Positions 701 through 35,500 of a DNA stretch of 64,000 nt are shown here, piece by piece (the first letter of the stretch is position 1; each line of letters begins with the position of its first letter). Made by a program: the position numbers and the translations under genes. Under the pieces are notes generated by a model, which saw nothing but the letters and a program-made list of their open reading frames with translations, did not search any database and was not told the DNA's origin. This stretch comes from Dipteris shenzhenensis (Eukaryota): assembly GCA_047967505.1 (NCBI GenBank), contig CM106538.1. One strand, written 5' to 3'.

Positions 701-1396
701 AATGAAAACTCAAATTAAAACCCTCTTTTTTCTCTTTTTGTCCTTCTTTACCCCTTTTAAAAAATGTATTTCCTATTCAAAACACCCTTGTTTTCAAATT
801 TTCCTATATTAATTTTTTAAATTAGTTATTTTGTCCTAATTTATCATTCCTTTACTCCCCCCTTCTTATTAGATACAGGGTACCTTTACTTTGATGGACA
901 AATGAGACTAGGTGCCTGCTTTAATGATATTTGGCGGAATGGTAAAAGATGACTAGCATGACCAAGTATTTGGTTGGGGTAATCTTGTAGCTTTGATGGC
1001 TAATTATTCCATATCATAATGCTTTGCAATATATGGTAGTAACTCGGGGGTTGAGCATGAACATAATGTCGCTAAGATTGAAAGACCTTAGAGAATGTGT
1101 AATCTTAATACTTGGGTTTAGACAATATCATCTTCTTCTATGCTACTCTTTAATTATCTTCTAAACCCCCATCGTATATAAATTTAGACCATATAGTTAT
1201 GTTTTATTTCTTTTAACTCTTGCAAATTTTGTTAACCCCTGCAGTATATTTTGATTATAATGTGGTTATAAAAAGAAACTACTAATGGGTTATAAAGTTT
1301 AAAAATTTGGCCTCAAGGCTGCCTAAGGTTCAAATGGATAAGAACGTTAGTCAAAGAGATAACATACACTTATGAAGAAGCTCATGCATACCTAGG
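534..1396. repeat. ~860-bp AT-rich dispersed repeat with a (CT)n tract; inverted copy at 34083-34934
   Basis: Near-identical to the reverse complement of 34083-34934; for example gaagaagctcatgcatacctagg matches cctaggtatgcatgagcttcttc. Confidence 0.9.
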
Positions 1397-1859
1397 CATT
1401 AGGGGAGAATTGTGGTCTCCAAAGGGCCCCCAATTAGTGTTTCCTAATTTCAAGGGATTACTGAGGTATTTGAGGTGTACCAATGGGAGTGCTCCTTTTT
1501 GTGGGGCAATGCCATGTTGAGGTGGAGGGTGGGCAGACCTACAAACAACCCCTATTGGCTACTCCTCTTACATTGGGGACCACTCAAACCATCCCCCCCC
1601 CCTCAACCCATGCTTGACCCTTCTCCCATATGTACCTCCCCCAAACAAACCTACAAGTCATTCAAGAGGCAGTGGACCCTTCTAGGTGAATTTTCCCCCC
1701 CTCTCAGCTTGTTACAGGCTTGCCCCCTCCTCTTCTCTAGTCCAGCTCCATTCTCCCTCCATTTTTCAAATGTGGGAACTCATTTGGCATCTTCTTTGCC
1801 CCCTCCTACTCTAGTCCACTGTGTTTCTCCCTCTCCAACACCTCCTATAGCAGCTACTC

Positions 1860-2591
1860 ATTCTCTCTCCATTGCTAGCTACCCCACCTCCTACAGCAGC
1901 AGCTGCTCATCCCCCTTTGCTCTTTCTTCCTCCATTCCTAGCTATAGTACCTCTTGTAGTGGATGCTCATCCCCCTCTACTCTTTCTCCCTCCATTCCTA
2001 GCTACAACACCTCCTGGAATAATTGCTCATCCCCCTCTACTCTTTCTCCCTCCATTCCTAGCTATAGAACCTCTTGGAGCTTCCATGCAAGCACTGTGGC
2101 AAGAACAACATAATGAGAAGTTTTGCAGAGCCAAAGCAAAGACAGAAAATGTGAATCTACTTTCAGTTGATGAGCCTCCACAAGATGAGGCATCCTTTGA
2201 AGATTATGCATTTTAAAACATCTCTATGTATGCTCCAGATCTCTCTTTTTATGTCAAGGTACTCAGCCTGGATAGTCCTCCAAAATGAATGAAATAAACT
2301 ATTGTGTTTTTGTGTGTTTTGTAAACACCTCTGGTCACCTTATGATGTAGGCCATGTGTATGTTTTACTCCATGGTACCTCCTGCAGACATTGTGTGCAT
2401 GTACATGCAGGGGAGATAACCATTGGAAGGTCTTTTTGTATCCCCTTTTGTTTACCTTACACCCATGGGAACCCTTGCTAGGATGAGAACCTAGCCATAT
2501 ATTTATCCTTGACCACCATGAGATGGCATGAGAAACTATGAGACTAGATGTATCCTTGACATAGCCTGAGGCATTCCCTTGAGGGGGGGTT
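1860..2591 (+). mobile_element. Internal region of a gag-only, non-autonomous LTR element
   Basis: 60-bp tandem repeats (HPPLLFLPPFLA x3) precede a frameshifted zinc knuckle CKHCGKNN(H)NEKFC (~2086-2126). The stop is at 2216, and no pol lies before the PPT gagggggg (2581-2589). Confidence 0.65.
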
Positions 2592-2896: not shown

Positions 2897-4155
2897 ATGT
2901 ACTCTGTGTCCCACAGGAGCAAAAATGCACTAGGTGAATCGGTGCCTTGCACCTATAGTTTGAATGATTGGATAGTCATGAGAGGATCTGCCAAGGGTCC
3001 ACATAAGCTTCCCAAGAGGAAAAGATGTGATCTTTTGCATGAATGGAAGGGCCGCATCATGAAGTTCAAGCTTGGGAAGAAAGGATTGCTTGCAAAGGTG
3101 CAACACATCTACATGGGGAAGGACATGCGCCTTCATTTGTCAAGCAATCAATCGACAATACCATCGCATTGTAAGTCTGCATTTTGTGTAAGACTTTGAA
3201 GTGTAATGAGTCAGCTTGAAATTGTATTTTGAAATAGAAGCAGTGTAATGAGTTAGTTTGAAATTGTATTTTGAAATAGCACTTGTGCATAGCAGATGTA
3301 TTTCCTTCAGAATTTGAGGAGTGGGAACCAGTCGAGTGCTTCTTAGGTAAGTTTACTACCATTCATGAGGATTTAGGAAGGCAAATGCATGCTGGAGAGA
3401 AGCCCTCTGCTTTGAAATAGAGAAATATCTATTGGTATAATGCCAAGTACATTACTCCAAGGATGGCATCAGGCTATGGCCATCTTCAATGCATTGCAAC
3501 ACCACAACTTGAAGACATGGATTGCAGCATGGTGGACACAAGAACAATGCAATCATATAAGGAAAAGATTGCAAAGGATGTGGACATGGCCATGAAGTTT
3601 ACATTTGGCTCTAAATGGGTAAGGTTGTCTTGGTTTATGCCTCTGCACATTTTTGCTTCTTGTTTTCATAATATCCAGATGCACAGAACAAAAACCATGT
3701 GGTCATGCAAGTGCCTACATGAGAATGCCCTTGAGGAATTGCTTGGGGTGAATTGGGGAAGTAGGTCAGGTGAACAAAAGGGTGATCTGTTTCAATGCCA
3801 TGTATGTAAGGACAATGTGGTTATCAAGTACCACATCTCCTACCAAATGTTATATTTTGCTTTCCAATATAGGTGCTGTAAGAAAACAGGTGGCAATTGG
3901 CTCCCCCTTGACTCTAACGATGATGATAATACAGGGGTAAGTTTATGTATTAGTTCTCATTTAGGAGATGTCAAGAATGTGACTGTCACATCACAGTGGA
4001 CTCTCAGGGACGTGTGGGAACACCTATTGGTCATGGAGGATGGCATGTATGAGTCCTTTCACTTTACCTTAAATGGTGAAAAGGTAGGAAAGCATGTAGA
4101 GAAGCTCATGCATAGTGCCACTTTTATCCCTCTTGCAATATTGAAGATTGTCTAG
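2897..4155 (+). pseudogene. BAH-domain protein pseudogene, probably 5'-truncated by the LTR; intron 3171-3295; possible ubiquitin-like C-terminus
   Basis: Spliced translation YSLNDWIVMRG..WKGRIMKF..AKVQHIY..YVFPSEFEEWEPVECFLGKFTT..NIYWYNAKY follows the BAH strand pattern. The phase-1 GT-AG intron joins in frame to ORF 3463..4155, with one in-frame TAG near 3418. Confidence 0.6.
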
Positions 4156-4388: not shown

Positions 4389-5782
4389 ATGGATTCTGCT
4401 AGGTCTGCCTTCCACGATTTCATCTCTTATACTCCATTAATTGATAGAGAGGAGGAGTTATTTCCAGTCTTTGATAAGAGCATAGATGTCCTAGGCACCT
4501 ACTTGGGAGCCCGAGACGATTTTGAAGACCTCATCAAGTACATGCAAGACTACATCGTGAGTTTTGCATATCAATTTGATGAATCTACAAAAAGATGGGT
4601 CCTAATTGATTATTTGAAGTACTTGTTCAATCAAGAACCTAGGTTCGTGAAGCGTTTAGATCGCTTTCGAGCCCAGCTCACACCCCTAGGCTTTAGGGAG
4701 TGGACACTGATGACCTCCTAGCATGTGGAGTCATCAAAAACATAGGAAATAGGTTCCTATCTTGGGAAATGACCTTTATTTTCCTTCTCTAGGAGGGACA
4801 AATGGAAGAGAAGGCCTCGACCTCAAGCCTTGCCCTTTTAGATCTTCTTATTTCTGTAGATGAGCCCAACATCTACAATGAAGAGCCCATAGATAAAGAA
4901 GCTGAGGAGTGGGAAGCTACATTGGCCCTGGAAGTGCTCCAGCGACCTCCTGAACCCCATTCTACTTCTCAAATTCCATCCACCTCAGGCACCACCTCTG
5001 TTGACCCCGCAACAATGATATGGTTTCTTGCTCCCCTTCTTGTCGATGGAGAACAATACCCCTTTCTCCATGACATAGAGGTTATGTTTGGTCTCTGGGA
5101 GGATGAAGCTCTTGGTATCCTATGTGGATATGAGGTGGACATGACTATGTAAGAACTTGGGTTTTTGGGAGCAGATGATTCAATAGAAGAGGTTCTTGCT
5201 TTAACACTAGCCCAAATCAAAGATGGAGAGACATCAATCTACTCCACCTACCTGATGTTCCAAAAGAAGCCTCCACATCTCACTCCAGACAACAGGAGGC
5301 CTCTGGATCCATCCTCATTAACAAAGAGGAAGGGATTGAGCATGATGACTCCATAGTGGTAAGAAACTGTGAGCTTTGAATTTCTTCTCTCTTGGTATAC
5401 TTTTGCTTTAATGGAATCCTAATGTAATGTTGGACTATTGCAGGAGGCATTTGAGGTCAACCTATTCTCATCTCGGCAACGCCTTGTTCGCAGTAGCTTC
5501 GGCTGAGATCACTCACTGGCACATTCCCTTGGCCAATCAAAAGGGTGCTTTGTGGTTATCCACAAAAAGTTTTCTCCACATGGCACTGATGACCTCTTGA
5601 AATGCAAGGCCTTGTCAAGAGTGATTGGTCATGTTGACATCAATCGCAATATTGACAAGGTCATTTTGGTGAACCGCATGGCTGCCCTCAATGCCTTTGG
5701 AACCAATTTCCAAGGTATGGCATTGATGGTGGTAGCCATGTCCCTGGCCAGCAACGACAATAGCGTTGACTCTATCGAATAG
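4389..5782 (+). pseudogene. Multi-exon gene relic of unknown function
   Basis: Consecutive same-strand ORFs 4389-4721, 4802-5152, 5165-5356 and 5552-5782. A GT-AG intron at ~5359-5443 has a downstream exon in frame with 5552..5782. AT-rich flanks. Confidence 0.45.
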
Positions 5783-6077: not shown

Positions 6078-6284
6078 TCACCGCACGGCAGAAGGCAAAT
6101 GTGTTCGGCATCACGCGGGGAGCCCAAAAATGGTAAAACCCACTATGCCGTGTATGGGGCTTGTTTGACCAAGATGGGGACTATTTGACCAAGTCAAACA
6201 GGCCCCATATGTGCCATAGTGGGTTTTACCATTTTTGGGCTCCCTGCACGATGCTGAACACATTTGCCTTCTGTCGCATGGTGA
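6078..6284. repeat. Long inverted repeat: 92-bp arms, 23-nt loop
   Basis: 6078-6169 is the near reverse complement of 6193-6284, including the run gggagcccaaaaatggtaaaacccactatg. Confidence 0.95.
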
Positions 6285-6466: not shown

Positions 6467-7582
6467 CTAGGGTCTAAGGGAGGGATCGGAGCGGATGCTC
6501 TTGGTGAGTGCAAGGTCCTTGTCCATCATTGTTACTCTTTTGCCATGGATAGCACATAAGTTCGAATCTTCAAAAAGACCTACTGTCATTTGCTCTGTTG
6601 CCTCCTAAATTGCTCCCATAGCGCCTGAAGTGAAGTGCACATCACTCTTGTAATGCTGTGCTATTTCACGTACAACACGCTGGAAGGGTGCACGGGGAAT
6701 GAGATTGTCCACAGTGGTTTGGAACTTGCGGATCTCCTAAAGTGCCTTGACGCCTAATTTTTTGTGCCTCTTAATCTTTGGGGGACCCTGCACTGGCCTT
6801 TGGACATGGCTCCATGGCCGCTTGTCTGCTTTGAACTTCTTTTGCCTCTCCTCCCTTTGCAACCACCTCTTCAGACTCCTTTTCTGTGTATGGTGGGTCA
6901 TTCGAGGTGGCTTCTCGCGCCTAGGGGTCTGCTTTGTCCTTGGTCTCTTTTCCTTTTCACGAGGCTATGAGACAGTAGGCTGAGGATCTTGCTCAACTCG
7001 TACTAGAGGCTCCTCATATCTGATCATCTCGAGGCATAGAGGGTTGATGGTGCTCTTCCGTGCGGTCTGCTTGGTTGGAGGATTGGGTCCAAGGTTCATT
7101 ATATCTGCAAGCCCACCAAATACTTCCTCTTGTTGTGGCCCCTATAATCTCTCCATCTCCTCTCTTTGCCTTTCTTGCTCCCCTTATTCGTCTAAATGCT
7201 CCACGCCAGGACCCCACAGAGGAGGGAGGGGCAATTGATCAGGATTGACTAGGCTATTTTGCCCCTCTTGGGAGACCTCTCTACTTCCACGGTTACTTGT
7301 GTGGAAGGACTGAGAGGACCCCTGATCGTGCTTGGATCCTTCATTGTGCTGGGATTCCTCATGGTGCTGAGATCCCTGGGATCCCCCATGAGAGTCGGAT
7401 GGTGGGGACTCATGTTGCTTAGGCTCCGGATGATGAGAACCGCCTTCAGATCCCTGGTGATCATTGCGCTCTTGGCCACTAGGGCTTGCAGTGTGTTCGG
7501 AGGCCATGGCATTTTGAGGAGGACAATGGGTAGCATCTAAATGGCGTACAGTGGGTCTAGCAGTTTGTTTAACTCGTGCCAT
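6467..7582 (-). pseudogene. Histone H3-like pseudogene with a ~270-aa N-terminal tail (372 codons in one frame, 5 premature stops)
   Basis: Starts MARVKQTAR. The C-terminal fold reads [86 protein letters not shown] and is colinear with H3. ATG 7582 to stop 6467 spans 1116 nt with no frameshift. Confidence 0.92.
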
Positions 7583-11344: not shown

Positions 11345-12340
11345 GCCAGGAGGGGGGCAGTAGGAGAGGGAGAGGGAGGGGGTTGTGTTGATCTAAGGGA
11401 GAGAGGGGGGCTGCATTGAAGCAGAGTTAGGAGTGGGAGGGGGGGTGTGTTGCAGGAGAGGTAGGAGTGGGAGGGGGGGTGCATTCAAAATCTGAGTGAA
11501 GAAAATCTCACAAGTCACGATTTTACTCAAAAATCAATGGAGCAACAAAGAAGAAGCTGTACACCAAAGAAAACCTGTACGCCAAAGAAAAAGATGTACG
11601 CCAAAGGAAAACTATACGCCAAAGAAAACCTGGATGCCAAAGAAAAAGCTGTACGCCAAAGGAAAGATTTAGCTGAGCAATTGTAGAGAGCTCCTGGCTG
11701 GCCATTGATGGTGTAGGCGTGATTCCTAAAAAGAGCAACCACAGTCAACGTGGTAGCAATGGAGGTGGAAGTAGAGGTAGAAGCTAAGGCCTGAGTACAA
11801 GAGGGAGGAGTGGGAGGGGGGGTGCGTTATAGGAGAGGGAGGGGGGTGCATTGTAGGAGAGGATGGAGTGGCAAGGGGGGTGCGTTGCAGGAGAGGCACG
11901 AGTGGGAGGGGGGGTGCACTGAAGGAGAAGCAGGAGGGGGGGTGCATTGCAGGAGAGGCAGGAGTGGGAGGGGGGGTGCATTGCAGGAGAGGGAGGAGTG
12001 GGAGGGGGGGTGCATTGAAGAAGAAGCAAGAGGGGGGGGGTGTTGCAAGAGAGGAAGGAGTGGGAGGGGGGGCTGCATTGAAGGAGAAGCAGGAGGGGAG
12101 GGTGCGTTGCAGGGGAGAGGCACATAGGAGGGTATGTAGAGGGGAGGGGGAGGTGGGTTAGGGGAACGCAGAAGGTGGCAGGAGGGGGTGCATAGAGGGC
12201 TGCATAGAGGGTGGTGGGTAGGGGGGTGTAGAGGGTTACGTAGAGGGTGGTGATTAGGGGGATGCGTAGAGGGTAGGGGAGACTCGTGAGGGGGGTGCTC
12301 AACTGGTAGAAGGGAAGCTACATAGAGGGTGGTGAGAGGG
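11345..12340. repeat. Degenerate G/A-rich tandem repeats, with a ~19-bp gtacgccaaagaaaa array at ~11555-11665
   Basis: Recurring gcattgcaggagaggcaggagtgggagggggggt units. Confidence 0.8.
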
Positions 12341-12939
12341 GGTGGCATAGAGAGGCTATGAGGGTGCAGGGAGAGGATCTGAAGATAGAGAGCAGGAGGA
12401 AGTAAAGGCCCAAGGAGGAGATGATGGAAGGCCCAAGGATGGCGGAAGCAGATGGAAGAGGAGCTGTAGCAAGAGATGTCATAGAGGAGATGGTGCTAGC
12501 AAGAGGCATGCAAGGCTGGAGTGGATAGAGGTGACAGAAGAAAGGGGGATACATAGGGGGGAGGATTGTCAAAAGCAAGAGAAAAGTTGACAAAAAAGTA
12601 GGAAAGCTAAAATTAGTAGGGTGCTAAAATAGTGCTTTGGAGTGTAATGTGTAAGGGGGTGGAGAGAACCAATGGAGGGGAGAGAGCCAAAAATCAAAAC
12701 CGCCAAACTTAACCAAATTCACCAAAATAGCACATTTGCCAAATTTAGCATATTCTCCAAATTTAGTGAAGTGCTAAAATTAGTTGGAAGTGTATCGCAA
12801 GGATGATGGAAGATGGAAAGAGAAGGTTTTGGTAAGAGATGAGAGATGGAGTGTGACAAAGGGTGGAGAGAGAAAGTATTGGTAGGAGAGAGGTGGGAGA
12901 GTGACCTAGGGTGGAGAGAGAAGGTGTTTGCAAGAGAGA

Positions 12940-13750
12940 GATAGAGGTGGACAAAGGATGGAAAGGGAATGAGTTTGTAAGAGAGAGGTGGGGGGTTGGA
13001 CGTAGGGTGGAAAGAGAAGGGTTTTGTAAGAGAGAGGTGGGGGGTTGGACATAGGGTGGAAAGAGAAGGGTTTTGTAAGAGAGAGGTGGGGGGGTTGGAC
13101 ATAGGGTGGAAAGGGAAGGGTTTTGTCAGAGAGAGGTGGGGGGTTAGACATAGGGCGGAAAGAGAAGGGTTTTGTAAGAGAGAGGTGGGGGGTGGACATA
13201 GGGTGGAAAGAGAAGGGTTTTGTAAGAGAGAGGTGGAAGGTTGGACACAAGGTGGAAAGGGAAGGGGTTTGTAAGAGAGAGATGGGAGGTTGGACAGAGG
13301 GTGGAAAGAGAAGGGGTTTGTAAGAGAGAGGTGGGAGGTTGGACATAGGGTGGAAAGGGAAGGGGTTTGTAAGAGAGAGGTGGGGGGTTGGACATTGGGT
13401 GGAAAGAGAAGGGGTTTGTAAGAGAGAGGTGGGGGGTTGGACATAGGGTGGAAAGGGAAGGGTTTTGTAAGAGAGAGGTGGGGGGGTTGGACATAGGGTG
13501 GAAAGGGAAGGGTTTTGTAAGAGAGAGGTGGGGGGTTGGACATAGTGTGGAAAGGGAAGGGTTTTGTAAGAGAGTGGTGGGGTTGGACATAGGGTGGAAA
13601 GAGAAGGGGTTAGAGAGAGGTGGAAGGTTAGACATAGGGCGAAAAGAGAAGGTTTTTGTAAGAGAGAGGTGGGGGGGTTGGACATATGGTGAAAAGAGAA
13701 GAGTTTTGTAAGAGAGAGGTAGGGGGTCAGACATAGGGTGGAAAGAGAAG
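12940..13750. repeat. ~47-bp G-rich minisatellite
   Basis: Unit ttttgtaagagagaggtggggggttggacatagggtggaaagagaagg, roughly 17 copies. Confidence 0.95.
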
Positions 13751-14257
13751 GGAAAAGTGACACAGGATGAAAAGGGGAGGCCATAATTAGAGAGAGAAAG
13801 TGACACAGGATGAAAAGAGGAGGCCGCACTTAGAGAGAGAAAGTGACACAAGATGAAAAGAGGAGGCCTCACTTAGAGAGAGAAAGTGACACGGAGTGAA
13901 AAAGGGAGGCCTCACTTAGAGAGAGAAAGTGGCACGAGATGAAAAGGGGAGGTTGCACTTAGAGAGAGAAAGTGGCACGGGGTAAAAAAGGGAGGCCTCA
14001 CTTAGAGAGAGAAAGTGGCGTGGGGTGAAAAGGGGAGGTCACACTTAGAGAGAAAAAGTGGCATGGGGTGAAAAGGGGAGGCCTCACTTAGAGAGAGAAA
14101 GTGACACTGGGGTGGAAAAGGGAGGTCGCACTAAGAGAGAGAAACTGACATGGGGTGAAAAGGGGAGGCCTCACTTGGAGAGAGAAAGTGACACTTGGGG
14201 GGAAAGAGAAGGACCCATGTAGGGAGAGAAAGTGGCACCAGGTGAAGAGAGGAGGAT
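13751..14257. repeat. ~43-bp minisatellite, continuing at 15564-15650 after a solo LTR
   Basis: Unit cttagagagagaaagtgacacggggtgaaaaggggaggcctca. The variant ggacccatgtagagagagaaagtggcacca occurs on both sides of the insertion. Confidence 0.9.
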
Positions 14258-15709: not shown

Positions 15710-18700
15710 TCATTGATCATGGTACCTCTTGATGCATGACCCATTCACTAATGCACATAAGAGTCTGCCTTCCAAGGTGGCCAAGTAGACTCCTCCACTT
15801 GGGATAAGCTTGGCAATGAAAAATGGGCCTGTCCAACCACTTACAAACTTAGGTTTGTGTTTGAGAAACTTACTGGAATACAAGAGTACTAAATCACCAA
15901 CTTTGAAATCCCTCTTCCTGAGGTTCTGGTCATGCCAAGCTTTCTGTCGTTTCTGCCACACTTCTTGAGCGAAGACTACTTCACGTCGATGCTCTGCTAG
16001 TGCCTCCAAATCCCACAAGCGTTCCATTGTGCAGGCTTCAAAGTTGTTATTTTTGTCTGGAAAAACCCTGTGGGTGTCAAGATGAAATTCATAAGGCATG
16101 ATGGCCTCCAGTCCATAAAGCAGCTCGAAGGGTAAATACCCAGTACTCACCTTGTAAGGAGTTCGATAGGCAAATAAAGCAGCTGGAAGTATGTCATCCC
16201 AATCTGCTAAAGAGCTTAGGCAAAGATGATGCATGATTCTGCACATTGTGCGATTTGAGCTCTCAGTTAGACCATTGGCATGTGGGTAATAGGGAGATGA
16301 AAATTTGTGAACTATTTGTAGTAGGTGAACCAGTGGAGCAATGGTGTCATTTAGGAGGTGAGTCCCTCTATCACTCATCAACTCAACAGGACAGCCAAAC
16401 CGAGAGATGATCTGCTGGTCATATAGAAATGTGGCTACTATGTGGGTTGTACAGTTCTTGACTGCCTTGGCTTCGACCCATTTGGTTCCATAGTCGGTGG
16501 CAAGCAGAGCATACTTGTTCCCTTGACGTGTGGCAGGAGAGATGGGTCCAATGAAATCCAATCCCCAACGATAGAAGGGGGGCATCGAAGTGAATGGTTT
16601 GAGAGGAAGGTACTCGTGCCTTGTAGGCTTGGGGCTTGCTTGTTGACATGAATCACATTGGGTTACATGAGCATGGCAATCACGAAAGAGCTTGGGCCAC
16701 CAGAACCCCGCATGCATGATCTTCTGAAAAGTAGCATCTGAGGCCATATGCCCTCCACCTATGCTAGCATATGCCTCTTCAAGAATGGATTGTGTCTCAT
16801 GGGAAGCACACACCTCATCTCAAGATCTAGTCCTTCCTGAGCTTGTACAATTGACCTACAATCAACTTAAAAGGAGTAGCTTGAAGGATCTGCTTGCATT
16901 TCTCTGTTGGAGTTAGACCTAGAGGAAAGCCATCTGTAGACAAGAGGTATACTATGTTGGCATACCATGGTGGGGAGCAGTCCACCACAAATAGGCATTC
17001 ATCAAGTAGTGCCATCACCCCAAACAAGCCTGCATCGGGTAATTCATCGGTGATACCACTGGCTGGTTCCTCGGAATGTAACCTGGACAAGTGGTCTGTA
17101 GGTTGATGCAGTCTCCTAGCCCTCACCACAATGTCGAATTCAAATTCTTGAAAAAGAAGAATCGATTTGCTTAACAGGCCACCAAGAGTAGGCTTATTCA
17201 ATAAATACTTAAGAGCTTGATGATAAGTGATGATCACAAACTTGTTGCCCAAGAGGTAGTGATGATACTTGGTCATGGCATAAACCATGCCGAGGCCCTC
17301 CCTTTCTGTGGTACTATAATTGCATTCTATTCCATTGAGTTGTCGACTGGCGAAGTAGATGGGCAAATCAATCTTGGTTTCTTGGTTAGGTTGAGCCAGT
17401 ATAGCACCTACTGCCCACCCACTAGCATCCACATGGGCATGAAAAATTACATCCCAATCGGGCTACTTGAGGATGGGGGCCTTCAACGATGCTTCAGATC
17501 ATCAAAGGCTAGTTGTTATGGGGTAGCCCAAATAAAATATCGGTCTTGATGTAGGAGTTCTATCAATGCAACAACAATGTCGGCATAGAAATGTATAAAC
17601 CTTCGGTAATATCCTACATGCCCTAAGAAGGACTTCACCTCTTTGGGTGTACGAGGGATAGGCAATGAGATGATCACCTGTACCTTTGCGGGGTCCATAG
17701 TCATGCCCTCAGCAGAAACAATATGACCAAGGAGAACATCTCGGAGTGCAAGAAAGAAACATTTGTCAGGGTTCACACACAAGCGCACGTCTTTGCACTT
17801 ATCAAAGACCCATCTCAACTTATGTAGATGATCATTTTGTCTGGCCAGATGGGAGGCCGACTTACCATTAAAAATAGAGAAGTCATCTAGAAATACCTCA
17901 AGAAACTTGCCGATATTCTCCTGAAAGACTTTGGTTACAAGTCGTTGAATTGTTGCCAGGGCATTACATAATCCAAAGGGCATCATTCGGTAGGCATATG
18001 TTCCCCATTGAGTGACAAAGGTAGTCTTGGGCTGATCCTGTTCTTTCACTCGGACTTGGTTGTACCCACTATATCCATCCATGAATGAGTATAAAGCATG
18101 TCCTGCCACTGTCTCCAACACTCTATCTGTGAAGGGAAGAGGGAACCTATCATGTCATGTTGCAGCATTCAAACTCCGATAGTCAACACATATTCTAAGT
18201 TTGTTAGTCTCTCTTTTGGGTACAATGACAATTCCCGCTAACCCAATCAGAGTAATCCACTGGGTAAATTAATCCTGATTGCTCCATTTTTGTATATCTA
18301 TTTGGACTACCTTGCCATAGTTGGGATTCATGCGGTATGGACCTTTAATCACAGGGTCTGCATCCGGATATAAGTTGATGCGATTCTCCATGAAATAAGC
18401 GGGCACCCCCTTCAGATCCTTGTAGGACCAGGCAAAGACATCCACAAATTATTTCAAAAGGTCAGTGACTACAGCTAGAAGATAGTCATGTTCCCAAATC
18501 CAAGTGGCTAACTTCAAATGCCGGGGTTGGTGGTCCTCAGTCCCAATGTTGAGATACCGCCAATTCTGTGCCTCATTAACATTGGCAATGCATAAGGATG
18601 TTGAGGTACTTGGTTCACCCATTCTCAGACCTGTATGTGCTGGAGTATCTTCAAGGGGAAAGTCCCCCTCCACTTCTCTCAACCAAGATGGGGGGTAAGT

Positions 18701-32288: not shown

Positions 32289-34083
32289 AAAAATAGAAAC
32301 TTATAAACAACATGGCACACGATGCTCAGAAAAAGGTGAAAAAAACTTTAACTTGAAATATGGATTCTCATGAGTACAACTGGTAAAAAAGTGTTGAATC
32401 CGTCCAGTAGTCTAGGTTCCGAGGTCGGGGTCCACTTACCTACCACCATCCAAGAGAAACTAGTTGTTAGAACAACATAACTTCAAGTGGGTAGATAGGT
32501 AATGCATGTTAACCCTAGCTTGTTATTGCTTTTACCAAAGAACAAAAACTACCCTGCAAATTCTAAAGTGATAAAGTACGACTATTATATAAAGATTATA
32601 AAAAAGGATGGTATCAATAATTGTGAAAACCTAACACATATCTTTTCATTAAGGGATAAGGAAATAGTTGCCAATGTCATCCCGAAAGGAAATAAGGTAA
32701 CTTTAAAGTAAAACGTTAGGACCATATTGCATAGAGGTTGATTAATAAGCTGTTAGTTCCACATACACATAAAATTTTAGAAAAAGGTTAGATAGATAAT
32801 AATTGGGAAACCAAGAAATTTAAATGAAATGAACACAATTATTATAATTTAAGGAAGCTATACAATATTAAGTACAAAGATCATTAAGAAAAATTTAGAA
32901 AGGAAACCTTTAAGTAACATAGAGGAAAATAAAGGTTAGAATTATTTGGAAAAAGAAATAAATTGAATGAACATATGGTTTAATAAAGGAAATGTAAGCA
33001 ATAAATTTTGATGAAGTGCTTCTAAAGCTATAAACACTTCTTTAAGCAAACCAAAGGATTAATTATGAAAATAAATAAGGAAATATATGTATTTAAAAGA
33101 GTATGTAAGTGAGCCCTATATATATATATATATATAACTATGCATATCAATATAAATACGCGCATGTATATAACTATGCACAAGGAGCACCATTGTCCGG
33201 CCGAGGCATGCAAGTGATAGATCATCGTCCAAAGGTATGGAGGTGATCTGCAGTGACGTAAGGAGAGGAAGCAATCCAAAGGCTACGAAGGTGAGGGAGG
33301 AGTCATCGCAGGCACAGACAAGAGTACGTGATGGAGACCGCGATGATAATCTAGAAGGAAGAAAGAAGAGACGACCGTAAACTGGCAACTACAGGGAGTA
33401 AAGAGGAACCAGTAGAGCCAAGGAGAATACTGAGCACGAACTGAGTTTGAAGGAACAGTGCAAGCAGAGGCTCCCACTCTAGCACTTAATTAGTGAAGCC
33501 AAGAGAGAGCACAAGCAAAAGCTTGTGATGAATAGAGAAGCGAAAAGAGTCACATGATCTGTCGTGCGAAAACACGTAGATCAGTGAGCCGTAAAAGGGT
33601 TTAAAAGGGAGGCCAAGTCCGCCATGTACCGAGACGGTTATAAGTAGCTTCATTGTCAAAGGGAAACATCACAAGAGGCCCTGAGGAAAGCAACGCTAAG
33701 AGGCACTGAGAAGAAGGCAAGAGGAGGGTTGGCGAGCCATATCGTTAGACCTGAGTGATGGTAAAGCATGGAGCAGAGAAGGGTTGTGATAAGAGAAAAG
33801 CACCTACATGATGGTCGAGACAAACGTGGAGACTGGGGGAGAGGATAAGCTACAGCAAGGGAAAAAGGTCCATAAGGGAACTATGACTACAAGGACTCAA
33901 GCTAGAAGGGAGTGCAGGGAGGAGAAGACGAGCAGCAAGAGTGGAGAGGCGAACAAAGATCATGCAATTTGTAGTTCTACTAGGCAGACTTAGAGAACCA
34001 CTCCATAGATACGAGAGCGACTGGTTTCTTTCCATCAAATAAGAGAACTGCCTTGAAGTGTCATAACTCACTCCGCTGCCAAC
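32257..34083. repeat. ~1.8-kb dispersed repeat, copy 1; starts in (TG)n and has an internal (TA)n
   Basis: Colinear with 35501-37340. Confidence 0.9.
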
Positions 34084-34934
34084 CTAGGTATGCATGAGCT
34101 TCTTCATAAGTGTACGTTATCTCTTTGCCTAACCTTGGGCAGTCCTTTAGGCCAAATTTTTGCACTTTATAACCCATTAGTAGATTCTTTTTATAACCAC
34201 ATTATAATAAAAATATACTACAGGTTAACAAAATTTGCAAGAGTTAAAAGAAATAAAACATAACTATATGGTCTAAATTTATATACGATGGGGGTTTAGA
34301 AGATAATTAAAGAGTAGCATAGAAGAAGATGATATTGTCTAAACCCAAGTATTAAGATTACACATTCTCCAAGGTCTTTCAATCGTCACTACATCATGTT
34401 CATGCTCAACCCCCAAGTTACTACCGTATATTGCAAAGCATGATGATATGGAATAATTAGCCATCAAAGCTGCAAGATTACCCCAACCAAGTACTTGGTC
34501 ATCCTAGTCATCTTTTACCATTCCACCAAATATCATTAAAGCATGCACCTAGTCTCATTCGTCCATCAAAGTAAAGGTACCCTGTATCTAATAAGAAGGG
34601 GGGAGTAAAGGAATGATAAATTAGGACAAAATAACCAATTAAAAAAACAAATATGGGAAAATTTGAAAACAAGGGTGTTTTTAATAGGAAATACATTTTT
34701 TAAAGGGGGTAAAGAAGGACGAAAAGAGAAAAAGAGGGTTTAAATTTGAGTTTTCATTTGGAGAAAGAGAGAGAGAGAGAGAGAGACACACACACACACA
34801 CACACACAGAGATTAATATATGTATAAATACACACATCTATACATATATTAAGAAGGGAAATAGATTTGACTAGGGATAAGTTAGGGTAGAGATTAAATG
34901 GGGGGGTTTTTAGATCCAAGAGAAGTAAGAGGAG
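34083..34934. repeat. Inverted copy of 534-1396
   Basis: Reverse-complement match, with (GA)n(CA)n at the position of the (CT)n tract. Confidence 0.9.
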
Positions 34935-35500
34935 GGGGGGGAAAAAGGGGGGGGGGGGGGGATGGGGATAATGTGAATTTCTAGATGTCAATAACTGTAT
35001 GAATATATGAAAGAGTGTAGAAATTGTGTGTGTGTGTGTGTGTACCCACCCTCACTCGAGGGGACACCACATGATGGAGGCAAGACTTCCATTAAGTGGT
35101 GTCCTGCCCCATACCAAAAAACCAAAGAGGAAGCCTTTATGTAAGTGTTGGCAAAAAAAGGGGGTTATATCATATTAAGTGGATATTTCTTTTATGATCT
35201 TTCAAGTTGTAATCTTCAAGTTGCTCAATGGAATAAGACACATCGTGGAATTTCCATAACTATTTGGAGACAATCACACACTAGGCATAACAATTACGTA
35301 GCTACATCAATTCCAACAAAAAGTAAAATCTGGAAGGGATACGTCATTCCTGAAGCAAGTCATACAAGAATCTCAATCCTGCACAACCCGATAAGAGTTT
35401 AATGAGCAACGTGGCACGTGGCATGTGTCATGCAGCTAACCACCCAAGGACTAGCAGCGTGACACATGGTTAACTCGGCCAAAGGTCAACAAGGTTTGGG

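Follow-up and report, generated by a model that had tools for sequence, protein, structure and literature searches.

What is the gene at positions 2897 to 4155 of the window, the whole stretch of 64,000 nucleotides (nt) of contig CM106538.1 from Dipteris shenzhenensis, and does it belong with the H3-like gene and the RAG1-like gene that lie near it on the opposite strand? A first-pass annotation, made from the letters and a list of open reading frames (ORFs), had proposed a spliced gene for a chromatin reader with a BAH-like N-terminus, standing beside a RAG1-like enzyme in the way that RAG2 partners RAG1. We lean, with limited confidence, towards the reading that this is a dead copy of a conserved two-exon gene which is likely to be the second, convergent gene of a RAG1/Transib-like DNA transposon, with a reader role like that of RAG2.

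In the ORF list the gene appears as two pieces, 2897-3199 (100 amino acids, aa) and 3463-4155 (230 aa), as had been pointed out. Joining 2897-3170 to 3296-4155 gives a single frame of 377 codons with one internal TAG (3418-3420). The gene is made up as follows.

2897-3170, plus strand: exon 1 as kept, from the first in-frame ATG after the cut made by a retrotransposon (see below); aligns to the family N-termini and encodes the N-terminal half of the predicted BAH fold.
3171-3295, plus strand: intron of 125 nt, GT..AG, phase 1 within a Tyr codon; the joint from 3170 to 3296 is present in public runs X1 and X3.
3296-4155, plus strand: exon 2, with the second half of the predicted BAH fold, a middle domain and a ubiquitin-like domain; stop codon at 4153-4155.

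The intron is where the first-pass annotation had placed it. In two of four public runs (X1 and X3, from two studies) a contig joins 3170 to 3296 and skips the 125 nt. The junction is supported in X1 by one contig with 30 nt on its shorter side and in X3 by one contig that covers 3088-3170 and 3296-4048; both runs also contain contigs that retain the intron. The assignment of the runs to RNA or DNA is a guess, so that the intron-free contigs may be spliced RNA or intron-less DNA copies. These contigs skip exactly 3171-3295, and in either case the exon junction is biological.

Homologues support the same structure. The spliced translation aligns without a break over the junction to 10 of the 149 matched database proteins (P0013, E 4e-43; P0014, E 1.6e-33). 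Exon 1 is 44% identical to residues 15-107 of P0006, and exon 2 is 59% identical to P0001 with 100% coverage (E 7e-114); when exon 1 alone was compared with the longer database proteins there was no match at E<=0.01. In a relative that is about 25% identical, on the metagenome contig L002, there is a 103-nt GT..AG intron within the same Tyr codon and in the same phase, and a second metagenome contig, L001, carries exactly the spliced form of the L002 gene. Taken together, these data confirm the spliced gene model of 2897-4155. Two other stretches, 3619-3678 and 3937-3964, were considered as extra introns and ruled out because the homologues are colinear across both.

The intron itself contains a 42-nt tandem duplication (3204-3289), one unit of which is missing from the copy in run X2 (joint from 3212 to 3255).

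The gene is a member of a family that is real, spliced and multi-copy. A HMMER scan with P0001 found 165 representative clusters at E<=1e-3, of which 77 remain at E<=1e-10 and 11 at E<=1e-30. Fragments are frequent among the members, a few are full length (370-600 aa), and among 13 family proteins Pfam makes no assignment besides one weak BAH match. Overlapping contigs within one run carry unequal numbers of differences (X1 records 3/4, X1 records 5/6 and X2 records 21/22), and so there must be several copies per genome, with at least two diverged copies per run. Profile searches of viral contigs and genome contigs with the BAH-family and RAG1-like profiles gave no further loci, and the metagenome contig search gave only L001 and L002, both of which are short.

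The copy in the window is dead. Two features account for this.

2700-2888: 3' end of a high-copy long terminal repeat (LTR), with a depth 10-100x that of the gene; it truncates the native 5' end of the gene.
3418-3420, plus strand: in-frame TAG, a nonsense mutation; C at 3418 in the X1 and X3 copies, and Gln in P0001.

In other copies of the LTR the sequence past 2888 continues as a 13-nt string that resembles a primer-binding site, which marks 2888 as the end of the LTR. Homology to other copies of the gene begins at the same position. These other copies extend upstream of 2888 with sequence unrelated to the LTR, for at least 255 nt of loose ends in X1 and X3 and at least 172 nt in X2. The extension is in frame and brings in another ATG shortly ahead of 2888, by a few codons; its translation (M-V-R-R-P...) is similar to the way in which P0017, P0049 and P0091 begin. 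Because the other copies run upstream in frame through this ATG, we conclude that insertion of an LTR retrotransposon removed the start codon and the promoter.

The first-pass annotation had read through the TAG. However, position 3418 is T in the window but C in all of the depth there in runs X1 and X3, and P0001 has Gln; the TAG is therefore a nonsense point mutation in a dead copy and not a site of recoding. The differences between copies, tallied by hand (n=27), fall on third (11), first (10) and second (6) codon positions, which is too few to show selection. Two events killed the copy: the insertion, whose end at 2888 falls only a few codons inside the coding part and which took away the start codon and promoter, and then a C-to-T change that made the TAG at 3418.

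The first half of the protein comes from exon 1 and the following part of exon 2.

3296-3519, plus strand: second half of the region with a predicted BAH fold; taken together with exon 1, it matches roughly residues 7-196 of P0017, whose model gave Foldseek and VIA matches to BAH domains.

Over this region the window protein matches P0017 with E 1.8e-28 and 23% identity. An AlphaFold model of P0017 was made from a 13-sequence alignment (predicted local distance difference test, pLDDT, 81.6; predicted template-modelling score, pTM, 0.66). Foldseek found 88 matches to this model at E<=0.001; the best 40 are all BAH-domain proteins, with a best E of 1.7e-5, and include TNRC18, BAHCC1, DNMT1, ORC1, Sir3, EBS, SHL, AIPP3, ZMET2, DIM2, ASH1L and MET1. 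VIA on residues 7-196 gave Z 12.4 for ORC1b (5hh7), 11.6 for PBRM1, 11.3 for EBS and 11.1 for TNRC18, and BAH proteins make up 17 of the 50 rows for P0017. Two weak profile matches agree with this: the top match of the family profile in the PDB (177,635 sequences) is the BAH domain of BAHCC1 (E 0.039), and one family protein has a Pfam BAH match with E 0.017. The model thus clearly predicts a divergent BAH fold at the N-terminus of the family, as had been proposed. Of the two kinds of search suggested for checking it, that with Pfam did not reach the cut-off, while that with structure, on the P0017 model, led to the BAH fold.

The first-pass annotation had also raised an aromatic cage. In BAH domains that read H3K27me3 the cage has a back Trp, according to the accessible part of PMC13068663. 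The BAHCC1 profile alignment places a His of the family at the back Trp position and a Tyr at the following cage Tyr. Three candidate cage columns in the family hold W or Y in 9/9 sequences, H in 8/9 (Y in 1/9) and Y or F in 9/9. The putative cage is only partly canonical: aromatic residues are kept at two of the three positions, and His stands in place of the back Trp. The conservation of these columns suggests a functional pocket.

The rest of the protein is formed by two further domains. A model of the window ORF 3463-4152 was built with 75 relatives (pLDDT 87.5, pTM 0.74).

3520-3918 (approximate), plus strand: conserved middle alpha/beta domain of the model, with pLDDT >90 over most of it.
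3919-4152, plus strand: C-terminal ubiquitin-like (beta-grasp) domain, residues 153-230 of the window ORF 3463-4152.

No match to the middle domain was listed in the fold searches of the whole window ORF, and no search was made with the domain alone. This part had been described as a Trp/Cys/His-rich region. A conserved domain does exist here, but the richness in Cys does not hold for the family: other copies differ at 3874 and 3879 and encode Arg-Trp, as P0001 does, in place of two Cys of the window, so that the Cys-rich look is partly decay, and since the family consensus keeps only one Cys there is no zinc-finger pattern.

The ubiquitin-like C-terminus, in contrast, holds for the window's own sequence as it had been read. 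VIA with the model of residues 153-230 gave Z 9.8 with a root-mean-square deviation (rmsd) of 1.8 over 69 aligned residues (TINCR, 7mrj), Z 9.1 for kindlin F0 and Z 9.0 for the UBX domain of PUX5, and Foldseek matched ubiquitin with a template-modelling (TM) score of 0.76 normalised by target length. Residues 336-418 of P0017 are ubiquitin-like by VIA as well (Z 10.2; 33 of 50 rows). A C-terminal Gly-Gly is absent from the window protein, P0001, P0004, P0013 and P0017, which argues for a built-in interaction module rather than a conjugatable modifier.

Two genes on the opposite strand have to be considered together with this gene, and both were found where they had been claimed to lie.

6482-7582, minus strand: H3-like gene, long-tailed and interrupted by 5 in-frame stops; it matches Pfam Histone with E 1.9e-23 and 83.4 bits.
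11317-7876, minus strand: RAG1/Transib-like transposase gene, multi-exon and decayed; found by tblastn with residues 38-892 of the 898 residues of P0156.

The H3-like gene encodes a canonical histone fold and a tail of about 250 residues with three motifs like the N-terminus of H3, the first right at its beginning and the other two further in. Its in-frame stops are of all three kinds, so this copy has decayed too. The second gene is represented by the P0156 family, which comprises 8 long database proteins, one of them named from Klebsormidium nitens. Among the look-alikes that the Atlas language model lists for the window piece, the top three clusters (0.97-0.96, where 0.97 is 201/256 features) carry RAG1_ZnC2/ZnH2/RNase_H families. 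The motif order in P0156, judged by eye (D...G..A..CxxC, LHA..R, GG..AR, H..L.HGP...E), is that of the Transib proteins in the supplement of PMC9435367. On the basis of the look-alikes and the motif order, it is probable that the neighbour at 11317-7876 belongs to the RAG1/Transib superfamily.

The BAH-family gene (plus strand) is convergent with the RAG1-like gene (minus strand) in the window, with the H3-like gene in between. On L001 the BAH-family gene lies at 991-2146 (plus strand) and is followed, 98 nt on, by a convergent ORF at 2555-2247. This ORF matches the last 100 residues of P0156 and is co-linear with it to the very end (pairwise E 2e-6). Its Smith-Waterman score against P0156 is 87, which is reached by 0/2000 shuffles (maximum 61), and it also matches the C-terminus of the RAG1-like protein of the window (E 4e-4). 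With only 98 nt separating the two stops, L001 has no room for an H3-like gene, which is thus not present in every version of the system. A third source may point the same way: the database protein P0121 has a BAH-family N-terminus followed by a stretch similar to an ORF downstream of the gene in the window.

4802-5152, plus strand: downstream ORF; residues 76-107 match residues 242-273 of P0121.

The stretch of 32 residues is 44% identical (pairwise E 3e-6; tblastn E 0.001). The ORF may be a separate gene, or else an exon used alternatively within the BAH-gene unit, and P0121 hints at a conserved neighbourhood. The recurring convergent pairing is suggestive of linkage and is not a census. A complex prediction with residues 400-898 of P0156 and the middle/ubiquitin-like ORF of the window, in which alignments were not used and the sequences came from different sources, scored 0.00 and carries no weight either way.

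L001 (from 766) and L002 (from 181) share 96-99% identity beginning some 225 nt ahead of the start codon of the BAH-family gene, and are unrelated before that point. The change may mark the end of the element, the use of another 5' exon or a break in the assembly. The BAH-family gene of L001 carries an internal frameshift.

We propose that the gene is the second, convergent gene of a RAG1/Transib-like DNA transposon, with the H3-like gene placed between the two in this lineage. The BAH domain would dock the transposase complex on nucleosomes or a histone tail, and the middle and ubiquitin-like domains would contact the transposase or a host factor. The protein would then play the part of RAG2 and its PHD finger without being homologous to it. 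By analogy, such a role as a chromatin-reading partner is plausible; the idea that the BAH domain binds the H3-like tail of the element itself is purely inferential.

Several results weigh against this proposal. On the side of the transposase, the Atlas search with whole P0156 places a nematode DUF1280/PHD cluster first and RAG1 clusters only at 0.85-0.88; the Pfam RAG1 families match none of 7 neighbour pieces and none of 8 homologues (for 5 homologues not even at E<=10); and the profile of the RAG1-like family found 3 PDB sequences at E<=10, none of which is RAG1 or Transib, while the neighbour piece alone found only noise in the PDB. On the side of the reader, Pfam BAH (PF01426) matches 0/3 window pieces at E<=1 and 1/13 family proteins (P0091), with 15.5 bits against a gathering score of 30.8 bits, and a single-sequence phmmer search of the PDB with P0091 gave only noise (e.g. 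antibody light chains). Because Pfam BAH stays below its cut-off everywhere, the BAH call relies on structure prediction for a relative with 23% identity, and the back Trp is replaced by His in 8/9 family sequences. Finally, the convergent pairing is present in 2/2 loci with a readable 3' flank, but these are only two loci, L002 ending inside the gene, and no terminal inverted repeats or target duplications could be delimited, since the LTR insertion has put the left end outside the window.

The main mechanistic rival is that the transposon encodes an anti-silencing protein, in which the BAH domain masks repressive marks and the ubiquitin-like domain recruits a segregase or the proteasome, perhaps together with the H3-like protein. 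Anti-silencing proteins encoded by transposons are known, namely VANC of VANDAL elements. The linkage seen in the window and L001 fits this idea equally, the best ubiquitin-like matches include CDC48-binding UBX domains (Z 10.2 and 9.0), and the gene between the other two encodes three H3-tail-like motifs that differ from canonical H3. However, that gene is missing from the 98 nt of L001, and the UBX matches are tied with many ubiquitin-like domains (Z within 1); we consider an anti-silencing role unlikely.

A second alternative is an ordinary host gene family for a chromatin protein, represented here by a pseudogene that came to lie near a RAG1-like element by chance. BAH readers are common in plants, EBS, SHL, AIPP3 and ORC1b being among the fold matches, and no terminal repeats were found around both genes at the two loci inspected. 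Against this, the pairing recurs in a relative that is only about 25% identical, each run holds several diverged copies with the transition-rich differences typical of repeats, many of the database members are fragments, and the chimeric P0121 joins the BAH N-terminus to the window's downstream ORF. A chance neighbour thus seems distinctly improbable.

That the window copy is functional, with its TAG read through or recoded, is scarcely credible: the frame is open over 377 codons save for this single TAG, but the C at 3418 of other copies and the Gln of P0001, the LTR end that replaces the native start and upstream region, the altered codons for conserved Arg and Trp, and the 5 stops of all three kinds in the neighbouring H3-like gene all speak against it.

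The convergent transposon gene with a reader role is therefore the explanation that we retain. It can be extended, tentatively, to an undescribed RAG1/Transib-like branch in the green lineage and other eukaryotes which might have gained a convergent reader of BAH, new domain and ubiquitin-like domain independently, and here also a multi-tail H3 variant; this extension we hold to be possible but rather doubtful.

The surroundings of the three genes have the look of a repeat-rich, plant-type eukaryotic genome, with a G+C content of 36-51% and numerous tandem repeats. Two stretches of retrotransposon pol were recognised by eye.

3-278: C-terminal end of a copia-type pol.
15710-18121: gypsy-type pol ORFs.

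Of the region between the copia-type pol end and the LTR end, the part at 519-1396 has an inverted copy at 34083-34949. The interval between the BAH-family gene and the H3-like gene contains a hairpin-like inverted repeat (6078-6284; arms of 92 nt, 86% complementary, spacer of 23 nt), possibly a small non-autonomous element. Directly upstream of the RAG1-like gene, tandem repeats are densely packed within 11367-14200 (periods 34, 49 and 43 nt; strong G skew). They might represent the element's subterminal repeats or else a satellite that has nothing to do with it.

How does this system compare with those already known? RAG1-type transposases have been described in plant data before, in the form of 39 Transib-like proteins from plant assemblies (Tao et al., 2022, PMC9435367). 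Two invariant or near-invariant strings of the P0156 family have 0 matches each in the supplement of that paper, and the 39 proteins therefore seem to be a different set; the plant entries printed in that supplement look like standard single-gene Transibs, and a second gene is not described in the accessible part of the paper. Our literature search found no paper that joins Transib with a BAH domain and, as judged partly by title or the start of the abstract, none in which an element of RAG1 type carries a BAH reader in a gene of its own.

The ubiquitin-like domain shares the beta-grasp fold of integral ubiquitin-like and UBX domains (PUX5 UBX, TINCR, SUMO-like; Z 9-10, rmsd 1.8-2.4 over 69-75 residues), but its sequence identity to them is only 7-16%, and it has no di-glycine end; nor was a UBX signature loop identified, though no test aimed at that signature was made. 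Compared with the plant and animal BAH readers EBS, SHL, AIPP3, ORC1b, BAHCC1 and TNRC18, the family has the common BAH beta-barrel in its predicted structure (Z 10.6-12.4, Foldseek E about 1e-5) and keeps aromatic residues at two of the three cage-like positions. It differs from them in falling below the Pfam BAH cut-off, in having His for the back Trp (the cage being that given in the accessible part of PMC13068663), in carrying a ubiquitin-like domain instead of a PHD, TFIIS or RRM partner domain, and in being multi-copy and transposon-linked. The family of BAH, intervening new domain and ubiquitin-like domain, with its 165 representative clusters and no Pfam assignment, is also unannotated.

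Mobile elements that carry their own chromatin reader are known from the integrase chromodomain of chromoviral (Gypsy) elements. The putative reader here has a BAH fold instead and is not fused to the enzyme but has its own gene, on what is probably a DNA transposon of the RAG1/Transib type. Fusions of transposons with chromatin readers are mostly with Chromo and PHD domains in the accessible part of one survey (bioRxiv 10.1101/2021.11.30.470311), and BAH would thus join a short list of transposon-carried readers.

Another parallel, in layout, is RAG2. In RAGL (ProtoRAG-type) transposons the RAG1L and RAG2L genes are convergent, according to the accessible part of PMC7204232. The likeness to RAG2 and RAG2-like genes lies in a second gene that is convergent with a RAG1-type transposase gene and carries a predicted histone-reader module. 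RAG2 consists of a Kelch propeller and a PHD finger, and this finger reads H3K4me3. The protein here, in contrast, combines BAH, a new domain and a ubiquitin-like domain, and is not homologous to RAG2: there is no propeller in the models, and Pfam finds neither Kelch nor PHD in the window pieces or the 13 family proteins. The neighbouring transposase is probably a remote RAG1/Transib-like branch. Any likeness between the two systems is confined to layout and putative role. For the origin of V(D)J recombination, a central question is how RAG1 came to rely on RAG2, a partner that reads chromatin. If distant eukaryotes have kept an unrelated reader gene tail-to-tail with the gene of a RAG1-type transposase, that partnership would be a recurrent one, and a tractable system for comparison would be at hand; should the extension to an undescribed branch hold, RAG1-type transposases would have acquired a histone-reading subunit on at least two occasions.

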